A stretch of DNA of 10,951 nucleotides from a virus. The translations under genes and the position numbers were made by a program. Below the pieces are notes generated by a model, which was not told where the DNA came from, did no database searches, and was given only the letters and a program-made list of their open reading frames with translations. Positions 4,240 through 10,951 of the stretch are shown here, in pieces (the stretch's first letter is position 1; each line of letters starts with the position of its first letter). Location: the IMG/VR virus record IMGVR_UViG_3300045988_174840, one strand, 5' to 3'.

Positions 4240-4249
4240 AATAAAGATA

Positions 4250-4289
4250 GGTATAATTTTAATACCCTTAAGGGTATTAAAATTATACC
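4250..4289. repeat. Perfect 18-bp inverted repeat GGTATAATTTTAATACCC-TTAA-GGGTATTAAAATTATACC (an iteron core in inverted orientation)
   Basis: The arms 4250-4267 and 4272-4289 are exact reverse complements. Confidence 0.9.
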
Positions 4290-4291
4290 TC

Positions 4292-4318
4292 AGTGGTATT
4301 AAAATTATACCAGAAATA
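4292..4318 (+). repeat. Iteron-like 27-bp direct repeat AGTGGTATTAAAATTATACCAGAAATA, copy 1. The core GGTATTAAAATTATACC also occurs at 4273-4289.
   Basis: Identical to 4466-4492. Both copies are followed by similar AT-rich TATATTATA tracts. Confidence 0.85.
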
Positions 4319-4338
4319 ATACATATATTATATTATAA

Positions 4339-4406
4339 AAGAAGTAATTTCATTACTTCGTATTCAAGCACTTCGTGCTTTCATACTCGTAATGAAATTA
4401 CTTCTT
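4339..4406. repeat. Large composite palindrome: 18-bp outer arms AAGAAGTAATTTCATTAC / GTAATGAAATTACTTCTT enclosing an inner hairpin AGCAC-TTC-GTGCT
   Basis: The outer arms 4339-4356 and 4389-4406 are exact reverse complements. The inner hairpin is at 4367-4379. Confidence 0.85.
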
Positions 4407-4465
4407 AGCCGCCGATAATTTTGCAAAATGTCGAAAAAGTGTAACACAATATAATATAATATAAT

Positions 4466-4492
4466 AGTGGTATTAAAATTATACCAGAAATA
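4466..4492 (+). repeat. Iteron-like 27-bp direct repeat, copy 2
   Basis: Exact copy of 4292-4318, 174 bp away. Confidence 0.85.
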
Positions 4493-4545
4493 TTACATAT
4501 TATACTATATTATATTATATAACTATTATATAATAATAATAATAT

Positions 4546-4582
4546 AGGTAATGTATCATACCTTCGGTATGATACATTACCT
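4546..4582. repeat. Perfect 17-bp-stem hairpin AGGTAATGTATCATACC-TTC-GGTATGATACATTACCT (a UUCG-type loop)
   Basis: Exact inverted repeat. It lies at the boundary between the AT-rich origin-like region and the purine tract. Confidence 0.85.
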
Positions 4583-4599
4583 TAGTGTAAATTAAAATG

Positions 4600-5400
4600 A
4601 AGAGTTTTATGCGGGGTGGGGTATTTAGTAGTTGAATCCGCTTTGTTTTAGAGGGACTCTTGTTTAATTTTAAAATGTCAAGGAACGTTTTAAAAAATGA
4701 TTTGAAAATTTTAAGGTTTAAGTAAATTAGGAAAGTTTTTCGGAAGGCATGAGAAAAAGTAAGAAAAGAAGTATGGTATATTTAGAGAATGGCAAAGAAT
4801 ATTACTGAATAATAACAAAGAGTTAGAGAGTTTTGTTAAAAACGAGTTATGGTTTTTTGGTTAGAAAAGTGTGGAAGAGGGTATTTAAATTATAAGAGAA
4901 GTATGGGAGTGCGGAATTGAATTTAATTAAAGTGCTTCCGCATTTAAAAAGCAAGGTTAAATAAAAATTGCGGGTTACAGAATTGCTTAAATAAAATTAT
5001 TAAAATTTTGCGTGAGGAGTTTGATTTTGGAGAGAATTAAGGGTAGCTTTAATAAAATATAAAGATTGGATTAAAGGTGCGTAAGGTTAAGATAATAAAA
5101 TATTTTAGAATTAGAGGGAATTGATGATAGGTTAATAAAAATAATAAGACTGAGTAAAGAGAATTTAATGTTTGGATTAAGAGAAAGTATAAGTTAGATT
5201 AAGAGAGAAGAAGGTTGAAGTATATAAAATAATAAGCGGAAGTGAGGATTTTGAGATTGGGTTAAGAGAGGAGTGAGATTAGAGTGAGAGAGCGTAGAAT
5301 TGGAGTGTAGAGAGGATGAGAGTGAGGCGTGAGTGGAGAAAGGATAGAGCGAGGCTGAAAAAATGCGAGAAAAAGGTGAAAAAAATTGTGAGAGTGAAGT
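4600..5400 (+). repeat. ~800-bp non-coding tract that is almost cytosine-free on the + strand (G/A/T only). It carries degenerate GATTAAGAGAG-type repeats.
   Basis: By eye there are about 40 C in about 800 nt, against abundant G. The motif (G/A)GATTAAGAGAG(G/A)AG recurs near 5068, 5174, 5196 and 5258. There is no SD-led ORF of meaningful length. Confidence 0.8.
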
Positions 5401-5430
5401 GCTCAGCCTCACTCTCCCTATCCTACCTCA
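5301..5430. repeat. Long imperfect inverted repeat GAGAGGATGAGAGTGAGGCGTGAG / GCTCAGCCTCACTCTCCCTATCCTACCTC at the 3' end of gene 5438..5833. Candidate terminator or structured element.
   Basis: Arms at about 5301-5330 and 5401-5430 pair over about 20 bp with one bulge. The strand composition flips exactly here. Confidence 0.5.
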
Positions 5431-5437
5431 GAGCTCT

Positions 5438-6052: not shown

Positions 6053-6187
6053 GCGGAGAGAGGTGAGGTATGTTAAAATTGCGGGATTCTAGAGTAGTGA
6101 TTCAAAATTCCAAACATCTAGGAAAAAAGCCCATATAGGCGATCTTTGTGGTAGGTCGGATCCGAGTCCTTTGAACTCGGACCGCTG

Positions 6188-6216
6188 ATTATATCACAGC
6201 CGCCGCGTTTTGTCAA
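6188..6216 (-). promoter_or_regulatory. Consensus promoter TTGACA-17-TGaTATAAT. Its transcript would begin at the 6154-6185 hairpin.
   Basis: The reverse complement reads TTGACA aaacgcggcggctgtga TATAAT. Confidence 0.6.
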
Positions 6217-6435
6217 TAGGCAAATTATATAAATTTTTCATTATTTTTTTAGTAATATTGCACAAAAAGTCATTTTTACCAAAAATTTCATTAAAAATAG
6301 GATTTTTTTTGGTAAAAATGACTAAAATAAATAAAAATGTACAAAAAAATAGCCAAAAACCGCGTAATTTTTGGCTATTTTATATAGAATATAGAATTTT
6401 ATTGAATTTTTATAAGAAATTTTAGTTATTTTGTA

Positions 6436-6498: not shown

Positions 6499-6900
6499 TT
6501 ACTCCTCTACAGCTTCCTCTTCCTCTTCCTCTTTTGCAAGAGAGAAATAAGGAACTCTTTTTTCAACTGTTCTAACTACCTCTCCAGATTCGATAAGCTG
6601 TTTAAGAAGAGCCGATAATTTCTGAGAAGAAAGTTTACTCATTTCAGAGTTTTCCTTAATCATGGTTGAAACTGTAACAGGTTTATCAAATAACTCCAAA
6701 GCTACAAGAATAAGTTTTTTGACTTCCTCATTTTCTTTCTGGTTTTTGGTTTTTTTACCGCTGGAAGATTTTTTATTCAACAGCTCGATTTCATGTCTGA
6801 GAAAGTTAAGTGCTTCTTCTTTTGGTTCAAAGCTACTTTCTTCCAGAAAAGCACTGATAGTTTCAAACCAATCTTTTTTTGTCATTTTGTCTTTCATCAT
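6499..6900 (-). CDS. Winged-helix-like protein with a poly-Glu C-terminal tail (~133 aa), paralog A. Start is ATG 6900 (or 6897); the ATG at 6906 is too close to the SD.
   Basis: The C-terminal 85 aa (KPVTVSTMIKENSEMSKLSSQKLSALLKQLIESGEVVRTVEKRVPYFSLAKEEEEEE) are about 85% identical to 8803..9210. Helix-turn-helix-wing pattern. Promoter at 6934-6962. Confidence 0.75.
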   Translation of the reverse strand: MMKDKMTKKDWFETISAFLEESSFEPKEEALNFLRHEIELLNKKSSSGKKTKNQKENEEVKKLILVALELFDKPVTVSTMIKENSEMSKLSSQKLSALLKQLIESGEVVRTVEKRVPYFSLAKEEEEEEAVEE

Positions 6901-6933
6901 ATTCATTACCTCTTTCTTTCTTTTGATATATTT

Positions 6934-6962
6934 ATTATAGCATACTTTTTTGTTTTTGTCAA
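6934..6962 (-). promoter_or_regulatory. Consensus promoter TTGACA-17-TGcTATAAT followed by the conserved leader ATATCAAAAGAAAGAGG
   Basis: The reverse complement reads TTGACA aaaacaaaaaagtatgc TATAAT. Confidence 0.6.
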
Positions 6963-6978
6963 TTACTTTTTTTATTTT

Positions 6979-7182
6979 TTAATTTTTTCCAAGATACTCT
7001 TCAAGATGCTCGTTTAAGAAATTTATAGTTTCATCCAACCCGCAAATCTCACAAAAGTTTTTAAAAGCTTTTTCAAGTTCTTTTTTTCTAGTTGCTTTTA
7101 TTAATTTAATACAACTCTCATAATCTTCTTTTGTAATAACAAAAGGAACGCATCCATCTTTTTTCAATGTAAATTTTTCCAT
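6979..7182 (-). CDS. Hypothetical small protein (67 aa, several Cys)
   Basis: SD AGAGAGG is 9 nt before the ATG. Promoter at 7215-7243. Confidence 0.55.
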   Translation of the reverse strand: MEKFTLKKDGCVPFVITKEDYESCIKLIKATRKKELEKAFKNFCEICGLDETINFLNEHLEEYLGKN

Positions 7183-7214
7183 TTTTATTTGCCTCTCTTT
7201 CTTTTGATATATTT

Positions 7215-7243
7215 ATTGTATCACATCTTTTGACTGCTGTCAA
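7215..7243 (-). promoter_or_regulatory. Consensus promoter TTGACA-17-TGaTACAAT
   Basis: The reverse complement reads TTGACA gcagtcaaaagatgtga TACAAT. Confidence 0.6.
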
Positions 7244-7249
7244 GCACTT

Positions 7250-7669
7250 TTATAAAATATTTTCAGCTTTTAAGTAATCTCTATAGGAAATATAGCCATT
7301 TTCCGCGAGCCACCTATCACAAGCGTTGGATTCTCTCCAATAATACTCCTCCCAGACTGGAAAAGTTATTATTATTTTATCACTTTCTTTTTTAAGAATA
7401 GTAATAATTGTATTAATACAATGTCCTTTACCCTCAAGCCATTCCTTGAAAGTAACCTTTTCTGCCGCTTCAAACGAAATTGTAAATGAGAAATTAAGCT
7501 CTTTTCCTTTTTCTGTGAGAAAATCAGTTAAATAATTTACAAACTCTTCTTCCTCATAGTTACTTTCGTCCAGCAGTGGAGTTTCTAAAAAATGCTCATT
7601 TGCTGGATTATAAAATCCATTTCTTTTGATGTCTTCAATTAACATTTTAACAACTTTTTCAATTTTCAT
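7250..7669 (-). CDS. Hypothetical acidic protein (139 aa)
   Basis: SD AAGGAATGGGA. Promoter at 7705-7733. Glu/Asp-rich; no motif recognised. Confidence 0.6.
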   Translation of the reverse strand: MKIEKVVKMLIEDIKRNGFYNPANEHFLETPLLDESNYEEEEFVNYLTDFLTEKGKELNFSFTISFEAAEKVTFKEWLEGKGHCINTIITILKKESDKIIITFPVWEEYYWRESNACDRWLAENGYISYRDYLKAENIL

Positions 7670-7704: not shown

Positions 7705-7733
7705 ATTATATCAAATTTAATTTGGTTTGTCAA
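7705..7733 (-). promoter_or_regulatory. Consensus promoter TTGACA-17-TGaTATAAT
   Basis: The reverse complement reads TTGACA aaccaaattaaatttga TATAAT. Confidence 0.6.
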
Positions 7734-7840: not shown

Positions 7841-8164
7841 TTAAAAATAACTTCCTAAGCTTGTAATAAAAGTGCTTTCTACAATAAGTTTATTATTTAT
7901 ATAATAAGTAAAAGCAATAGAAGTTACATAAACAGCCAGACCTAAGAGTGAACTTTCAAAAGCACATTCCTGAGAGATATTAAATTTATAGTTTTTATGT
8001 TTAGGATTTTCTTTTAAGAAATTGAAAACAGTCTCGCCTAAACAATCGCCTTTATTATTCATTTCCATGTAATTATGTCTTTCAGAGTTCCAAAAACCGT
8101 GACTGTCTAAAAAATCATAAAGGTCTGCCATTGTCTCCTCAAACATTGTTAAATCGTTTGCCAT
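7841..8164 (-). CDS. Hypothetical small acidic protein (107 aa) with a GFW motif and a hydrophobic C-terminus
   Basis: SD AGAGG is 8 nt before the ATG. Promoter at 8200-8228. It shares the L-D-L-x3-GFW-S-E/D motif with 9361..9636. Confidence 0.55.
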   Translation of the reverse strand: MANDLTMFEETMADLYDFLDSHGFWNSERHNYMEMNNKGDCLGETVFNFLKENPKHKNYKFNISQECAFESSLLGLAVYVTSIAFTYYINNKLIVESTFITSLGSYF

Positions 8165-8199
8165 ATTAAATACCTCTTTCTTATTTATTTTATGTATAC

Positions 8200-8228
8200 A
8201 TTATATCAAAAGAAAAAATAAAAGTCAA
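8200..8228 (-). promoter_or_regulatory. Promoter TTGACT-17-TGaTATAAT
   Basis: The reverse complement reads TTGACT tttattttttcttttga TATAAT. Confidence 0.6.
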
Positions 8229-8419
8229 TGGCATTTTGCACAAAGTATAATAAAATATTTTGTCTATTTTGACTATTGACAAGTTTAGCATTGTGCATAA
8301 CAGAGAAAATTGGCGAATTTTGATATAAATTTTTGTTCATTTTACCTATTGACAAAGAATTTTGTGCAAAACAGAGAATTTTGGGATAAAAAATTTTTTA
8401 TTTTTGTGCATTTTTTCTC

Positions 8420-8448
8420 TTGACAAAATTGTTAGCGTGTGATATAAT
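8420..8448 (+). promoter_or_regulatory. Consensus promoter TTGACA-17-TGaTATAAT on the + strand. It forms the left arm of the 8420-8513 palindrome and has no ORF downstream.
   Basis: TTGACA at 8420-8425, 17-nt spacer, TATAAT at 8443-8448. Confidence 0.55.
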
Positions 8449-8457
8449 GGATATTTC

Positions 8458-8480
8458 GGTCGCCTTGATCCAAGGCGACC
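8458..8480. repeat. GC-rich perfect hairpin GGTCGCCTT-GATCC-AAGGCGACC at the centre of the promoter palindrome
   Basis: The 9-bp arms are exact reverse complements. It sits at the predicted +1 of both flanking promoters. Confidence 0.85.
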
Positions 8481-8484
8481 CGCT

Positions 8485-8513
8485 ATTATATCACACTTTC
8501 GGGTGCTTGTCAA
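8485..8513 (-). promoter_or_regulatory. Consensus promoter TTGACA-17-TGaTATAAT on the - strand. It forms the right arm of the palindrome and points toward the small-gene array.
   Basis: The reverse complement reads TTGACA agcacccgaaagtgtga TATAAT. Confidence 0.55.
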
Positions 8514-8802
8514 TAGGCAAAATAAACAAAATTAAAAAATTTTTGAGCATTATCTTTGTTACATTTTCACAAAATTATAGACTGGAACTCTTTGTGCAAC
8601 AATACCAAAATTATAAAAATTTTTTAGCTATTTTTTGTAATTTATGTACATTGACTTTTTTGTTCTCTGGTATTTTTGAATAAAAAACATCCCTCCAGCA
8701 GCGGATTTTTTGTGCAAAAAGTAGAAAAAAAAATGCACAAAAAGGAGGACGGATTTTGTGCAATCCGCCCTCTTGACAAGGTTTATAAGTTACTTTTTAG
8801 TT

Positions 8803-9210
8803 TTACTCTTCTTCCTCAACTTCTTCTTCTTTTGCAAGAGAAAAGTAAGGAACTCTTTTTTCAACTGTCCTGACCACTTTGCCTGCCTCAATCATTTTTT
8901 TCAACAGTGCAGATAACTTCTGAGAAGAAAGCTTACTCATTTCGGCGTTCTCTTTAATCATTGTAGTTACCGTGACAGGTTTACCAAACAGCTCTAAGGC
9001 AATTCCAATAAGTTCCATAAGCTCCTCATTTTCTTTAATGTGAGCTGTTTTCTTTTTGCCTGGTGCTGAAGATTTCTTATTTAACAGTTCAATCTCGTGA
9101 TTGATGAAGTCAAGTGTTTCTATTTTTTTGTCAAAGTTTTCGGTTTTTTCTACGATGCCAACCAGCAGTTTGAAAAAGTCTTTTTTTGTCATTTTTGTTG
9201 TGTTTGTCAT
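8803..9210 (-). CDS. Winged-helix-like protein with an acidic C-terminal tail (135 aa), paralog B
   Basis: SD AAGAGGA is 8 nt before the ATG. Promoter at 9323-9351. The C-terminus KPVTVTTMIKENAEMSKLSSQKLSALLKKMIEAGKVVRTVEKRVPYFSLAKEEEVEEEE matches paralog A. Confidence 0.75.
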   Translation of the reverse strand: MTNTTKMTKKDFFKLLVGIVEKTENFDKKIETLDFINHEIELLNKKSSAPGKKKTAHIKENEELMELIGIALELFGKPVTVTTMIKENAEMSKLSSQKLSALLKKMIEAGKVVRTVEKRVPYFSLAKEEEVEEEE

Positions 9211-9255
9211 AATTAAATTCCTCTTTTCTTTCTTTAAAAATTTTTTTGGTGGCTT

Positions 9256-9292
9256 GCGGTCGGTGGTCGATTTTGCCGACCAACCAAACCGC
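9256..9292. repeat. Imperfect GC-rich stem-loop GCGGTCGGTGGTCG-ATTTTGC-CGACCAACCAAACCGC in the 5' leader of gene 8803..9210
   Basis: Seen directly in the sequence. It shares the CAGCGG-GGTC...GACC theme with the hairpins at 6154-6185 and 8458-8480. Confidence 0.6.
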
Positions 9293-9322
9293 TGAAATTA
9301 TTTACTACTTTGTTACAATACT

Positions 9323-9351
9323 ATTGTACTACTTCTTTTTACTTTTGTCAA
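9323..9351 (-). promoter_or_regulatory. Consensus promoter TTGACA-17-TACAAT followed by the palindromic TTGTAACAA leader element
   Basis: The reverse complement reads TTGACA aaagtaaaaagaagtag TACAAT agtaTTGTAACAAag. Confidence 0.6.
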
Positions 9352-9360
9352 GCACTTTTT

Positions 9361-9636
9361 TTATTTTTTTTGTTCCCACAAAACTACTTGAGTCATAGGC
9401 TTGTTATTTTCAATCCAAGCAAGGGAAAAAGCTACGATGTTAAAAGGATGCTCAAGAAATTCGATATAATCAATATCAAATTCAAAATCCCATTCTTTTT
9501 GATAAGATTCTAACAAGCTATTGATAGCGTTATAGCTATAAGTATAACTATAACTATCACTGTCCCAAAAACCTGCTTTTATTAAGTCATCTTCTAAACG
9601 ATTTAAAATTTTTTCTAACATTATTATCACCTTCAT
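9361..9636 (-). CDS. Hypothetical small strongly acidic protein (91 aa) with a GFW motif
   Basis: SD AAGGAAA is 9 nt before the ATG. Probably co-transcribed with 9699..10073, since no separate consensus promoter was found. Confidence 0.55.
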   Translation of the reverse strand: MKVIIMLEKILNRLEDDLIKAGFWDSDSYSYTYSYNAINSLLESYQKEWDFEFDIDYIEFLEHPFNIVAFSLAWIENNKPMTQVVLWEQKK

Positions 9637-10096: not shown

Positions 10097-10160
10097 TTTA
10101 CTATTAACTTGTTACAATGGTATTATATCGCACCTTAGCTTAAAAGTCAAGCATTTTCGT
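10097..10160. repeat. Perfect 64-bp direct repeat, copy A (promoter + leader + last 5 codons of the exonuclease gene)
   Basis: Identical to 10888-10951 at an offset of 791 bp. Confidence 0.9.
10122..10150 (-). promoter_or_regulatory. Consensus promoter TTGACT-17-TATAAT plus a TTGTAACAA leader, lying within the 64-bp direct-repeat copy A. Its -35 overlaps the exonuclease stop codon.
   Basis: The reverse complement reads TTGACT tttaagctaaggtgcga TATAAT accaTTGTAACAAg. Confidence 0.6.
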
Positions 10161-10857
10161 GTAATTCTTTTCTTTTTTTCTGCGGCAGTCTCCAACATGA
10201 CGGCTTAATACTTCTATCCATTTTTTTATGCTGGTCAAAACATTTTTTCATAATTTCAATTTCAATTTTTACATCTTCTAAACCTGTATGAGATTCTACA
10301 AAATCAATATTCTTTTTAATATATTTATAGCATACCTCAGCGTTAGTTAAAAGATTGCCTTTTTCAGACTCAAATCCGTTTTTCTCAGCAAATTTGATAT
10401 AGGTGTTTGTACTTAAAATCATCTGGCAAGCCATATTCCAAATACAAAAATATTCTGTGCCATAAGGGAAAAACCAGCGAATAAAACTTTTGCTATGGTA
10501 TCTAATAGCATTGTTTAATGCTTTTCTATCAAAATTCATATTGTAAGCACCAACTTTTTTCACATTATATTCTTTCATGTCTGCAAACATCTGTTTTCTA
10601 ATATTGAAGATGCTTTTCATGGTTCTTTTTCCGCTTTTTAAATCATCCCAATATTTTGGGATTTTTTTAGCGTAGTAGGCACTATTCATAGCTTCTTTCA
10701 AGTCAATAAATGTCTCAGCGACTACAAAGCTTCTTTCGGTGACAATGTTACCGTGTCTATCTGCAATAGCATAACCAATATCATAAGGGATTGGCTCATT
10801 TACACTATTCGCAGTTTCTGTATCCAATACCATGAAAAACTCTTTTCTTCTACTCAT
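10147..10857 (-). CDS. DEDDh (DnaQ-like) 3'-5' exonuclease, ~236 aa. Start is ATG 10857; the ORF-track start at 10872 is a TTG with no SD.
   Basis: Exo I MVLDTETAN. Exo II VGAYNMNFDRKAL. Exo III HTGLEDV (H-x4-D). GAGGAAA lies 6 nt before ATG 10857. Promoter copy B is at 10913-10941. Confidence 0.8.
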   Translation of the reverse strand: MSRRKEFFMVLDTETANSVNEPIPYDIGYAIADRHGNIVTERSFVVAETFIDLKEAMNSAYYAKKIPKYWDDLKSGKRTMKSIFNIRKQMFADMKEYNVKKVGAYNMNFDRKALNNAIRYHSKSFIRWFFPYGTEYFCIWNMACQMILSTNTYIKFAEKNGFESEKGNLLTNAEVCYKYIKKNIDFVESHTGLEDVKIEIEIMKKCFDQHKKMDRSIKPSCWRLPQKKRKELHENA

Positions 10858-10887
10858 TTTTGATTTCCTCAACTTTCATTTATTTTT

Positions 10888-10951
10888 TTTACTATTAACT
10901 TGTTACAATGGTATTATATCGCACCTTAGCTTAAAAGTCAAGCATTTTCGT
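10888..10951. repeat. Perfect 64-bp direct repeat, copy B (runs to the window edge); contains promoter 10913-10941 for the exonuclease gene
   Basis: Identical to 10097-10160. It includes ...TCAAGCATTTTCGT, the stop codon plus C-terminal codons of an exonuclease-like ORF, which implies a further homologous gene end just beyond the window. Confidence 0.85.

Follow-up and report, generated by a model that had tools for sequence, protein, structure and literature searches.

Face-to-face promoters around a covarying GC hairpin: a probable regulatory cassette between the early genes of large gut phages

Anatomy of the face-to-face element

The stretch of viral DNA analyzed here (IMG/VR record IMGVR_UViG_3300045988_174840; 10,951 nt, one strand; hereafter the window) carries at 8378-8544, between co-directional genes on its - strand, an element in which two consensus promoters face each other across a GC-rich hairpin. 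One promoter (P_fwd1) reads with the genes and the other (P_rev) against them. The parts of the element, in + strand order, are:

8378-8419, + strand: upstream region of P_rev, with the TTTGTGCA motif at 8403-8410 and a conserved TTTyGGGAwAAA motif (GGGATAA at 8383-8389)
8420-8448, + strand: P_rev, a sigma-A type promoter TTGACA-17-TGaTATAAT that opposes the genes (TTGACA 8420-8425; TGa 8440-8442; TATAAT 8443-8448; spacer of 17 nt)
8458-8480, no strand assigned: central hairpin, a GC-rich 10-bp stem with a 3-nt loop, 5'-proximal in both transcripts (arms GGTCGCCTTG at 8458-8467 and CAAGGCGACC at 8471-8480 around an ATC loop; 7 G-C pairs)
8485-8513, - strand: P_fwd1, a sigma-A type promoter TTGACA-17-TGaTATAAT in the same direction as the genes (TTGACA 8513-8508; 17-nt spacer; TGa; TATAAT 8490-8485)
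8507-8544, - strand: P_fwd1 -35 box and upstream module, TTTTGTTTATTTTGCCTATTGACAA on the - strand (family consensus tTTGTCAATAGgcAAAATnCACAAAA on the + strand)

Both promoters score 12/12 against the consensus, each with an extended -10, and exact matches to TTGACA-N17-TATAAT occur five times in the window (29% GC), compared with none in 200 dinucleotide shuffles. An earlier, sequence-only reading of the window had placed the two facing promoters at these positions, and they are confirmed, as is the hairpin at 8458-8480, although its stem is 10 bp long rather than the 9 bp given there. That reading also described the arms as reverse complements of each other with unmatched spacers. The inverted symmetry is present and longer than described: the P_rev and P_fwd1 arms are exact reverse complements over 8437-8448 and 8485-8496 (12 nt, 100%), and an outer symmetry joins 8389-8426 to 8507-8544 (38 nt, 84%), the module at 8507-8544 being an inverted copy of the module upstream of P_rev. 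The spacers do fail to match over their first 10 nt, whereas their last 7 (GTGTGAn) fall within the 12-nt repeat. The P_rev spacer is semi-conserved and G-rich (AAATTGcTGGCGgGGTG), and the GGGA motif, on the opposite strand, stands upstream of a second gene-direction promoter in relatives.

Transcription is predicted to start at approximately 8454-8456 (+) from P_rev and 8477-8479 (-) from P_fwd1, which places the starts ~23 bp apart; the distance from either start to the base of the shared stem is 0-4 nt (2-4 nt ahead of the hairpin in the case of P_rev). P_fwd1 has a GC-rich discriminator (AGCGGG) and a GC-rich initial transcribed region made of the stem itself, compared with an initial region for P_rev that is AT-rich after GG. 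Folded as single-stranded DNA (ssDNA), 8385-8548 forms a single long hairpin in which the spacers stay open as a 10+10 bubble (-37.2 kcal/mol; z = -8.3; equalled by 0 of 200 shuffles), and the shorter fold of 8415-8520 proposed in the sequence-only reading is also stable (-22.9 kcal/mol; z = -5.8). The anatomy of 8378-8544 is real and far beyond chance.

Phage context

The replicon is a large phage. A 370-aa ATPase encoded in the window matches phrog_2376 (5.7e-102) and a 241-aa exonuclease-like protein matches phrog_20187 (4.8e-60); in tblastn searches the ATPase has matches in 394 phage records, and the exonuclease-like protein has matches in ~140-kb Enterococcus phages and the gut phage phAss-1. 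Megablast of the whole window against GenBank phages gave no match. A 221-nt piece containing the cassette (8340-8560) was found by blastn in a phage collection in phAss-1 only, and the same piece, searched with word size 11 against 72,556 PLSDB plasmids, gave no match. The Pfam scan of 10 open reading frames (ORFs) revealed no conjugation or leading-region domain and no relaxase, ssb, psiB, or ardA, genes that the sequence-only reading had proposed to look for in flanking sequence outside the window. Among IMG/VR contigs, three (L001, L002, and L036; 80-97 kb) are ~94% identical to the window over 8177-9369 with the element intact, and the same cassette is present in many IMG/VR contigs of 80-200 kb. 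L001 and L002 diverge from the window at gene 7841-8164, where they carry different sequence; the breakpoint falls in the leader that follows the proximal promoter of that gene (P_fwd2).

In phAss-1, a complete gut phage genome of 135,976 bp, matches to a profile of the cassette (described below) occur only at 128.9-135 kb and 0.47-0.55 kb, which form one region across the ends of the record. This region contains about half (22) of the consensus-like promoters of the genome on the - strand, and 2 of the 3 on the + strand. The confinement of the cassette to the promoter-dense region of phAss-1 indicates that it is a feature of the immediate-early region. The paper describing phAss-1 contains nothing on promoters or repeats. 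Large gut phages of this type are uncultured, and the cassette offers a sequence signature by which their immediate-early region can be located. Within the phAss-1 record, the coding sequence deposited at 130698-131642 (L126 4323-5279) runs antisense to the exonuclease-like protein as located by tblastn and also crosses a cassette; the ORF calls of the record look unreliable in the early region.

The cassette family

A scan of IMG/VR for perfect face-to-face promoter pairs yielded at least 120 stretches, among which several unrelated classes of such pairs recur. The class to which the window belongs is marked by a strong GC hairpin and by -10 boxes that stand 36-39 nt apart, and is found on contigs of 28-48% GC, several of them multi-copy. 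In 1.15 Mb of fetched loci, an nhmmer profile of this class detected 59 distinct copies of full length; 25 of them lie outside the perfect-promoter selection, and there are 3-5 cassettes per 10-14 kb locus, all in one orientation. The family cassette is ~180 nt long and intergenic. Read in + orientation, the aligned copies share much more than the two promoters, namely, in this order, TTTyGGGAwAAA, AAATTTGTGCA-N8-CTC, TTGACAAAAT, the semi-conserved G-rich spacer, and TATAATGG, followed by aAAtTTCGG, the hairpin, CCGnC, the opposite -10 box with its TG, 10 variable nt, and TTTGTCAATAGgcAAAATnCACAAAAAA; in most loci a hairpin between an A-run and a T-run follows directly after TTTGTCAATAGgcAAAATnCACAAAAAA.

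Conservation within the family is asymmetric, with P_rev as the most conserved element. The distance of 36-39 nt between the -10 boxes is kept in 49 of 55 copies, and the P_rev -10 box is TATAAT in 53 of them, including those that were not selected by the pattern. The spacer is 17 nt in P_rev and 17-18 nt in P_fwd1. P_fwd1 always keeps this spacer and its -35 box, and nearly always its TG, while its -10 box is TATAAT in 35 copies (nearly all pattern-selected), TAAAAT in 11, and TATACT in 9.

The genes run in the direction of P_fwd1 in the window, in L111, and in phAss-1, and an ORF preceded by a Shine-Dalgarno sequence is present within 330 nt on the P_fwd side of ~40 of 57 copies. Past the GGGA motif in the gene direction comes a second forward promoter (CCCGAAA-TTTGTGCA-N9-TTGACA-17-TATAAT/TATACT), followed by a leader and a start codon; its equivalent in the window is P_fwd2, at 8228-8200. 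On its other side, the cassette adjoins the terminator of the upstream gene in most copies. Since this terminator adjoins the cassette and the genes run with P_fwd1, P_rev is predicted always to fire against the genes and into the terminator, and the recurring order in early regions is terminator, P_fwd1, hairpin, P_rev, P_fwd2. The predicted P_rev RNA has a modal length of 105-108 nt in full cassettes and measures ~55-75 nt where P_fwd1 is missing, as in many units that consist of P_rev, the 5' hairpin, an A-rich linker of 5-15 nt, and a terminator hairpin. No published description of the cassette was found in the literature on convergent phage early promoters, SPO1 host-takeover promoters, or phAss-1, and the Rfam 15 covariance models gave no match at the cassette in the window, L111, L076, L099, or L126, where only sub-threshold chance hits were returned.

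In a group of GC-richer relatives (L111, at ~7000-7330, L076, L053, L034, and L099), many cassettes are followed by tandem promoters in the gene direction, each of them succeeded by AATGTCAAGAGGGrA; the spacer of ~100 nt that leads up to the next promoter is GC-rich and apparently structured, and such segments may represent small RNAs or leaders. The other face-to-face classes of the scan (L019, L026, L042, L045, L060, L071, L073, L074, and L091; L007, L017, L043, L048, L087, L089, and L107) include one in which the hairpin is AT-rich (ATACTAAGA...TCTTAGTAT) and 45-46 nt separate the -10 boxes, and one whose spacers are operator-like palindromes (TTACGG-N5-CGTAA). Judging from these IMG/VR classes, face-to-face consensus pairs are common in phages.

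Covariation in the arms and the central hairpin

The sequence-only reading suggested that on ssDNA the two arms would pair and restore a duplex promoter with a mismatched spacer bubble, as in the Frpo promoter of the F plasmid and other ssDNA promoters, which act early on leading-region genes of incoming conjugative DNA. Under such a model, early genes would be transcribed ahead of complementary-strand synthesis. The predicted ssDNA fold is exactly the hairpin that this pairing would form. A long predicted ssDNA hairpin containing -35 and -10 boxes is, however, no evidence for an ssDNA promoter, because two head-to-head copies of one promoter module present the same picture, and it is covariation across relatives that separates the two cases. 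For 54 arm-arm pairs in 34 distinct copies, pairing amounts to 63.7% compared with 63.6% in column shuffles (216 of 500 as high), with a covariation score of 0.128 compared with 0.124, which means that the arms are complementary because both fit the same promoter consensus. The drift of the P_fwd1 -10 box to TAAAAT or TATACT is uncompensated, as the P_rev arm stays TATAAT, and these changes are the ones that a working promoter tolerates. One two-sided change between the window and L001/L002 (A8442G with T8491C) does keep its pair, next to an uncompensated G8439A, and is read as a coincidence or local gene conversion. The symmetry of the arms is therefore not conserved beyond the shared promoter consensus, and the pairing proposed for them is not borne out.

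The central hairpin behaves differently. Its six-pair core is paired in 79.6% of cases compared with 62.9% in shuffles and 32-50% in slid controls, 33 cells are changed on both sides compared with 11.5, and the covariation score is 0.448 compared with 0.174; for pairing, two-sided changes, and covariation alike, 0 of 500 shuffles reach the observed value. The core helix was named by eye from the sequences, so that the slid controls favor it somewhat, while the shuffle control is independent of this choice. The 55 copies contain 43 different inner hairpin sequences, with a mean of -16.8 kcal/mol. RNAalifold reported no structure for the inter-promoter alignment, in which MAFFT had placed the stems out of register, and the excess of G-U over A-C pairs (25 of 532 versus 13 of 501) is too weak to tell which strand's RNA is selected. 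As judged from the aligned copies, selection maintains the structure of the central hairpin but not that of the long arm-arm hairpin.

Surroundings of the cassette in the window

The features of the window on which the interpretation of the cassette draws are:

8200-8228, - strand: P_fwd2, the proximal promoter TTGACT-17-TGaTATAAT with an upstream TTTGTGCA motif
7841-8164, - strand: small early gene, 107 aa, without a family match
8256-8356, + strand: extra module copies, two ~72-nt tandem copies of the P_rev upstream/-35 module (8256-8283 and 8329-8356)
8743-8776, no strand assigned: terminator hairpin of the upstream gene 8803-9210 (-), stem 8772-8745 with 11 pairs and the tail CTTTTTGTGC
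6159-6216, - strand: half cassette, a P_fwd1 paralogue (6216-6188) with its own 9-bp 5' hairpin (6183-6159)

Downstream of P_fwd2 lie the leader and Shine-Dalgarno sequence of gene 7841-8164, which is predicted to be served both by P_fwd2 and, via a ~310-nt leader, by P_fwd1; the observation in the sequence-only reading that the - strand promoter aims into an array of small genes stands. The extra modules at 8256-8356 have no -10 box, are kept in L001 and L002, and are absent from most other family members, which makes them specific to the lineage of the window, inserted between P_rev and P_fwd2. The hairpin at 8743-8776, whose T-run is good on the - strand and poor on the + strand, is the first in the window able to stop P_rev transcripts; an equivalent bidirectional terminator stands within ~10 nt of the cassette in most relatives, whereas the distance is ~230 nt in the window and is put at ~300 nt for its lineage. 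The half cassette at 6159-6216 shares the upstream tttgcctaTTGACA and tgtgaTATAATnAGCGG of P_fwd1, has no opposing promoter, and is matched by nhmmer at 6150-6229, corresponding to model positions 100-179. Elsewhere in the 640-nt non-coding interval 8165-8802, the TTTGTGCAA motif occurs in four exact copies (8361, 8591, 8709, and 8755) and in variants; some copies are away from any -35 box, and the motif is a candidate protein-binding site.

Proposed function

The interval is probably the core of a ~180-nt modular regulatory cassette that recurs in a family of large gut Bacillota phages (phAss-1-like, roughly 80-200 kb), where it separates immediate-early genes that run in the same direction. 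With the anatomy, conservation pattern, hairpin covariation, phage context, and early-region restriction as the observed basis, the roles of its parts are inferred. Both arms would act as double-stranded promoters for the primary sigma factor of the host, P_fwd1 reading in the gene direction and P_rev in the opposite one, towards the terminator that closes the upstream gene. The footprint of bacterial RNA polymerase extends from about -55 to +20, and with starts ~23 bp apart the open complexes on the two promoters would overlap by ~18 bp and be mutually exclusive, so that the promoters would compete and polymerases from one would run over the other. Given its AT-rich initial region compared with the GC-rich one of P_fwd1, P_rev should open more easily. 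The GC stem-loop, within the first few nt of both transcripts, would place a protective 5' hairpin on each RNA and may stabilize both; 5' stem-loops stabilize mRNAs in E. coli and B. subtilis, according to work cited in PMC3997798.

In most relatives, P_rev would produce a two-hairpin RNA of ~70-110 nt, with its 3' end at the bidirectional terminator that serves the upstream gene. In addition to competition and interference with P_fwd1, P_rev may have a role in cis, in which its polymerases collide head-on with readthrough polymerases at the terminator and thereby insulate and tune each early gene unit. Single-molecule and transcriptome work has found that head-on collision of RNA polymerases together with a nascent stem-loop leads to bidirectional termination (bioRxiv 10.1101/2022.10.23.513370). 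The minimal P_rev units consist only of two hairpins and an A-tract, a composition that favors a role in cis over base-pairing in trans and is compatible with a decoy function. The conserved modules may furthermore double as recombination points for gene shuffling.

A more specific proposal can be put forward tentatively: P_rev, the 5' GC hairpin, and the bidirectional terminator might together form a dedicated minimal transcription unit and a new phage regulatory element, either a collision insulator of immediate-early genes or a source of very stable two-hairpin RNAs, with P_fwd1 gated by competition. If so, built-in antisense promoters would here act as insulators throughout the genome of a virus, the first natural case of such a use. 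The compact design (two consensus promoters, one palindromic 5' hairpin, and an adjoining bidirectional terminator) is directly testable in vitro and could be reused in synthetic biology for Gram-positive hosts.

There are several points that weigh against the regulatory-cassette interpretation. All start sites, RNA ends, and promoter strengths are predictions from sequence. P_rev in the window has no good + strand terminator within 170 nt, and the picture of a short antisense RNA would fit the relatives and not strictly the window copy; across the family, a strict terminator criterion leaves only about half of the P_rev units with a canonical + direction terminator within 170 nt. Half cassettes with either promoter alone exist, so that the face-to-face layout is not obligatory. 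The G-rich P_rev spacer and the TTTGTGCA and GGGA motifs could be binding sites for a regulator, which would change the mechanism. Additionally, the family search selected perfect promoters in both arms, and the unselected copies come from the same contigs, meaning that the sampling is not independent.

Alternative explanations

Two alternatives survive best, and each is considered unlikely to an equal degree. P_rev could be the promoter of a small, stable noncoding RNA, with a 5' GC hairpin and a terminator hairpin, which acts in trans, for example by titrating a host protein or defense system in the manner of a decoy or sponge, or as an antisense RNA to the 3' end of the upstream mRNA. The prominence of P_rev as the best conserved element, the structural selection on the hairpin, the prediction of a two-hairpin RNA of ~55-110 nt in many copies, and the occurrence of many copies per genome, all in the early region, would suit such an RNA. 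Nevertheless, the hairpins differ within one genome and the linker is an A-tract, so that neither a single-stranded seed nor a protein-binding sequence is conserved; Rfam gave no matching family, and the window copy is without a nearby terminator.

Alternatively, the cassette may be kept mainly as a recombination module resembling the promoter-early stem-loop (PeSL) elements of T4-type phages, with the face-to-face geometry a by-product of joining modules in both orientations. Repeated, highly similar cassettes surround small variable genes, and in one case the neighboring genes change between relatives of 94% identity from a breakpoint within the promoter-leader module; there are also half cassettes and additional partial modules, and a 64-nt perfect repeat is found on either side of the exonuclease gene. 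What this explanation leaves unaccounted for is the fixed 36-39 nt geometry, the covariation of the hairpin, and the fact that the antisense promoter is the more strongly conserved one. Instead of opposing the regulatory-cassette interpretation, it could hold alongside it.

It is improbable that P_rev serves as a supercoiling helper. Being divergent from P_fwd2 (-35 box ~65 bp away), it would generate local negative supercoiling in linear DNA that has just been injected, to the benefit of the gene-direction promoter. In nearly all copies P_rev and P_fwd2 do stand back-to-back and share an upstream region that is conserved, and a short terminated transcript would keep the cost low; the geometry is the sole support, however, and in the window the inserted modules put P_fwd2 ~190 bp from P_rev.

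More improbable still is a bistable switch of the 186/P2 type between alternative programs, with a repressor on the conserved spacer, TTTGTGCA, and GGGA motifs. The facing promoters with overlapping footprints and the conserved non-promoter motifs would accord with a switch, and GGGATAA is, on the other strand, the TTATCCC heptamer of the Reg576 operator of the Bacillus plasmid p576. That operator, though, consists of dual direct TTATCCC heptamers 2 bp apart beside a -35 box (PMC6294495), while the cassette has a single one (8383-8389, -), and TTATCCC is not enriched in the window (3 occurrences versus 1.09 expected); a Reg576-type operator was rejected on these grounds. There are also 3-5 cassettes per 10 kb between co-directional genes, only a terminator downstream of P_rev, and no integrase or repressor module seen in the window. 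The second suggestion of the sequence-only reading, a convergent double-stranded DNA (dsDNA) promoter pair with interference as in coliphage 186 pR/pL, is upheld with respect to the conserved pair and its fixed spacing and fails with respect to a lysis/lysogeny switch, since the pair is repeated many times per genome; it is closer to the truth than the Frpo reading, and right in kind.

The Frpo-like explanation is the least probable of all and hardly credible, because the context is that of a phage with no match among PLSDB plasmids and no conjugative setting, the DNA that tailed dsDNA phages deliver is double-stranded, each arm is by sequence a full promoter on duplex DNA, many copies have a single arm, conservation is asymmetric, and the arms do not covary.

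Other candidates were rejected at the level of individual features. The B. subtilis Chi sequence (AGCGG, after the -10 boxes of the promoters at 8513 and 6216) is missing from other family members; a CRISPR-repeat mimic (RNA anti-CRISPR) is contradicted by hairpin flanks that are not repeat-like and by hairpins that differ within a genome; the stem and loop sizes differ from those of N4-type hairpin promoters; and there are too many copies for a replication origin.

Comparison with known systems

On its sequence features, the cassette appears to be a previously undescribed form of known kinds of phage regulatory cassette, unusually economical in design, with a putative function for the antisense promoter. 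The closest analogue in genome role, by analogy only, are the PeSL elements (PMC2839356), which are composite terminator/promoter sequences according to the abstract of PMC4122927. Like them, the cassette joins a short terminator to an early promoter, is repeated many times between small variable early genes of a large lytic phage, and uses the host primary sigma factor, and the gene content of close relatives differs at the motifs (here in one case, the window versus L001/L002). Unlike them, it is larger (~180 nt), has a Bacillota-type consensus with a TRTG -16 region, belongs to phages of different hosts, and has no shared sequence that was found, the PeSL consensus not having been aligned. 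A conserved facing antisense promoter and a covarying GC hairpin are not mentioned for PeSL in the abstract of PMC4122927.

The likeness to coliphage 186 pR/pL and P2 Pe/Pc holds for geometry only, namely two facing promoters at close range with mutual interference. The 186 pair occurs once, at the lysis/lysogeny switch, where it is under the control of CI and each promoter drives an operon. Its starts lie ~62 bp apart, while those of the cassette are ~23 bp apart, with many copies per genome and one promoter that is predicted to yield only a short RNA.

With Frpo1 and Frpo2, ssDNA promoters in the leading region of the F plasmid (Masai and Arai 1997), the cassette shares a long imperfect inverted repeat, a predicted ssDNA stem that presents the -35 and -10 boxes, and a position upstream of small early genes. 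Frpo is active on transferred ssDNA and off after conversion to dsDNA (PMC9849209). The cassette differs in its phage replicon, in having a complete duplex promoter in each arm, in the lack of arm covariation, and in the absence of its sequence from plasmids, as judged by the PLSDB blastn search, in which F-type plasmids are assumed to be represented and no Frpo sequence was aligned directly. The likeness consequently fails on context, conserved pairing, and plasmid similarity and, as far as sequence can tell, on dependence on the fold.

Convergent gene pairs with bidirectional terminators (bioRxiv 10.1101/2022.10.23.513370) resemble the cassette in having an opposing promoter beside a bidirectional stem-loop and head-on polymerases, and engineered antisense promoters that tune genes (PMC4731013) resemble it in having a promoter set against the gene direction. 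Those systems are cellular or synthetic and in E. coli, whereas here a minimal unit is repeated through a phage early region and would have its role through collision. The 5' stem-loop stabilizers (the aprE leader of B. subtilis and ompA and papA of E. coli, as cited in PMC3997798) likewise have a stable hairpin near the 5' end, but in the cassette one palindromic hairpin would presumably stabilize two opposed transcripts.

Other features of the window

Besides the TTTGTGCA-type promoters of the cassette, the window has a second, distinct promoter class (6934-6962, 7215-7243, 7705-7733, and others) with A-tract upstream regions and the common leader TATAATaaatatatcaaaagaaagaaagagg. The tRNA scan of the window found none. 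The paralogous 135-aa genes at 6499-6906 and 8803-9210 have acidic C-terminal tails and share 226 nt at 77% identity, with no Pfam or PHROGs match for either. The 64-nt perfect direct repeat (10097-10160 and 10888-10951) brackets the exonuclease-like gene at 10147-10872 and contains a promoter (TTGACT-17-TATAAT) and leader, an arrangement that resembles a gene between identical regulatory modules. An ORF-poor stretch of 1.2 kb at 4240-5437 contains long AT-rich palindromes (4249-4290 and 4546-4582) with GGTATAAT-like arms, as well as a 49-nt repeat (4278-4326 and 4452-4500).

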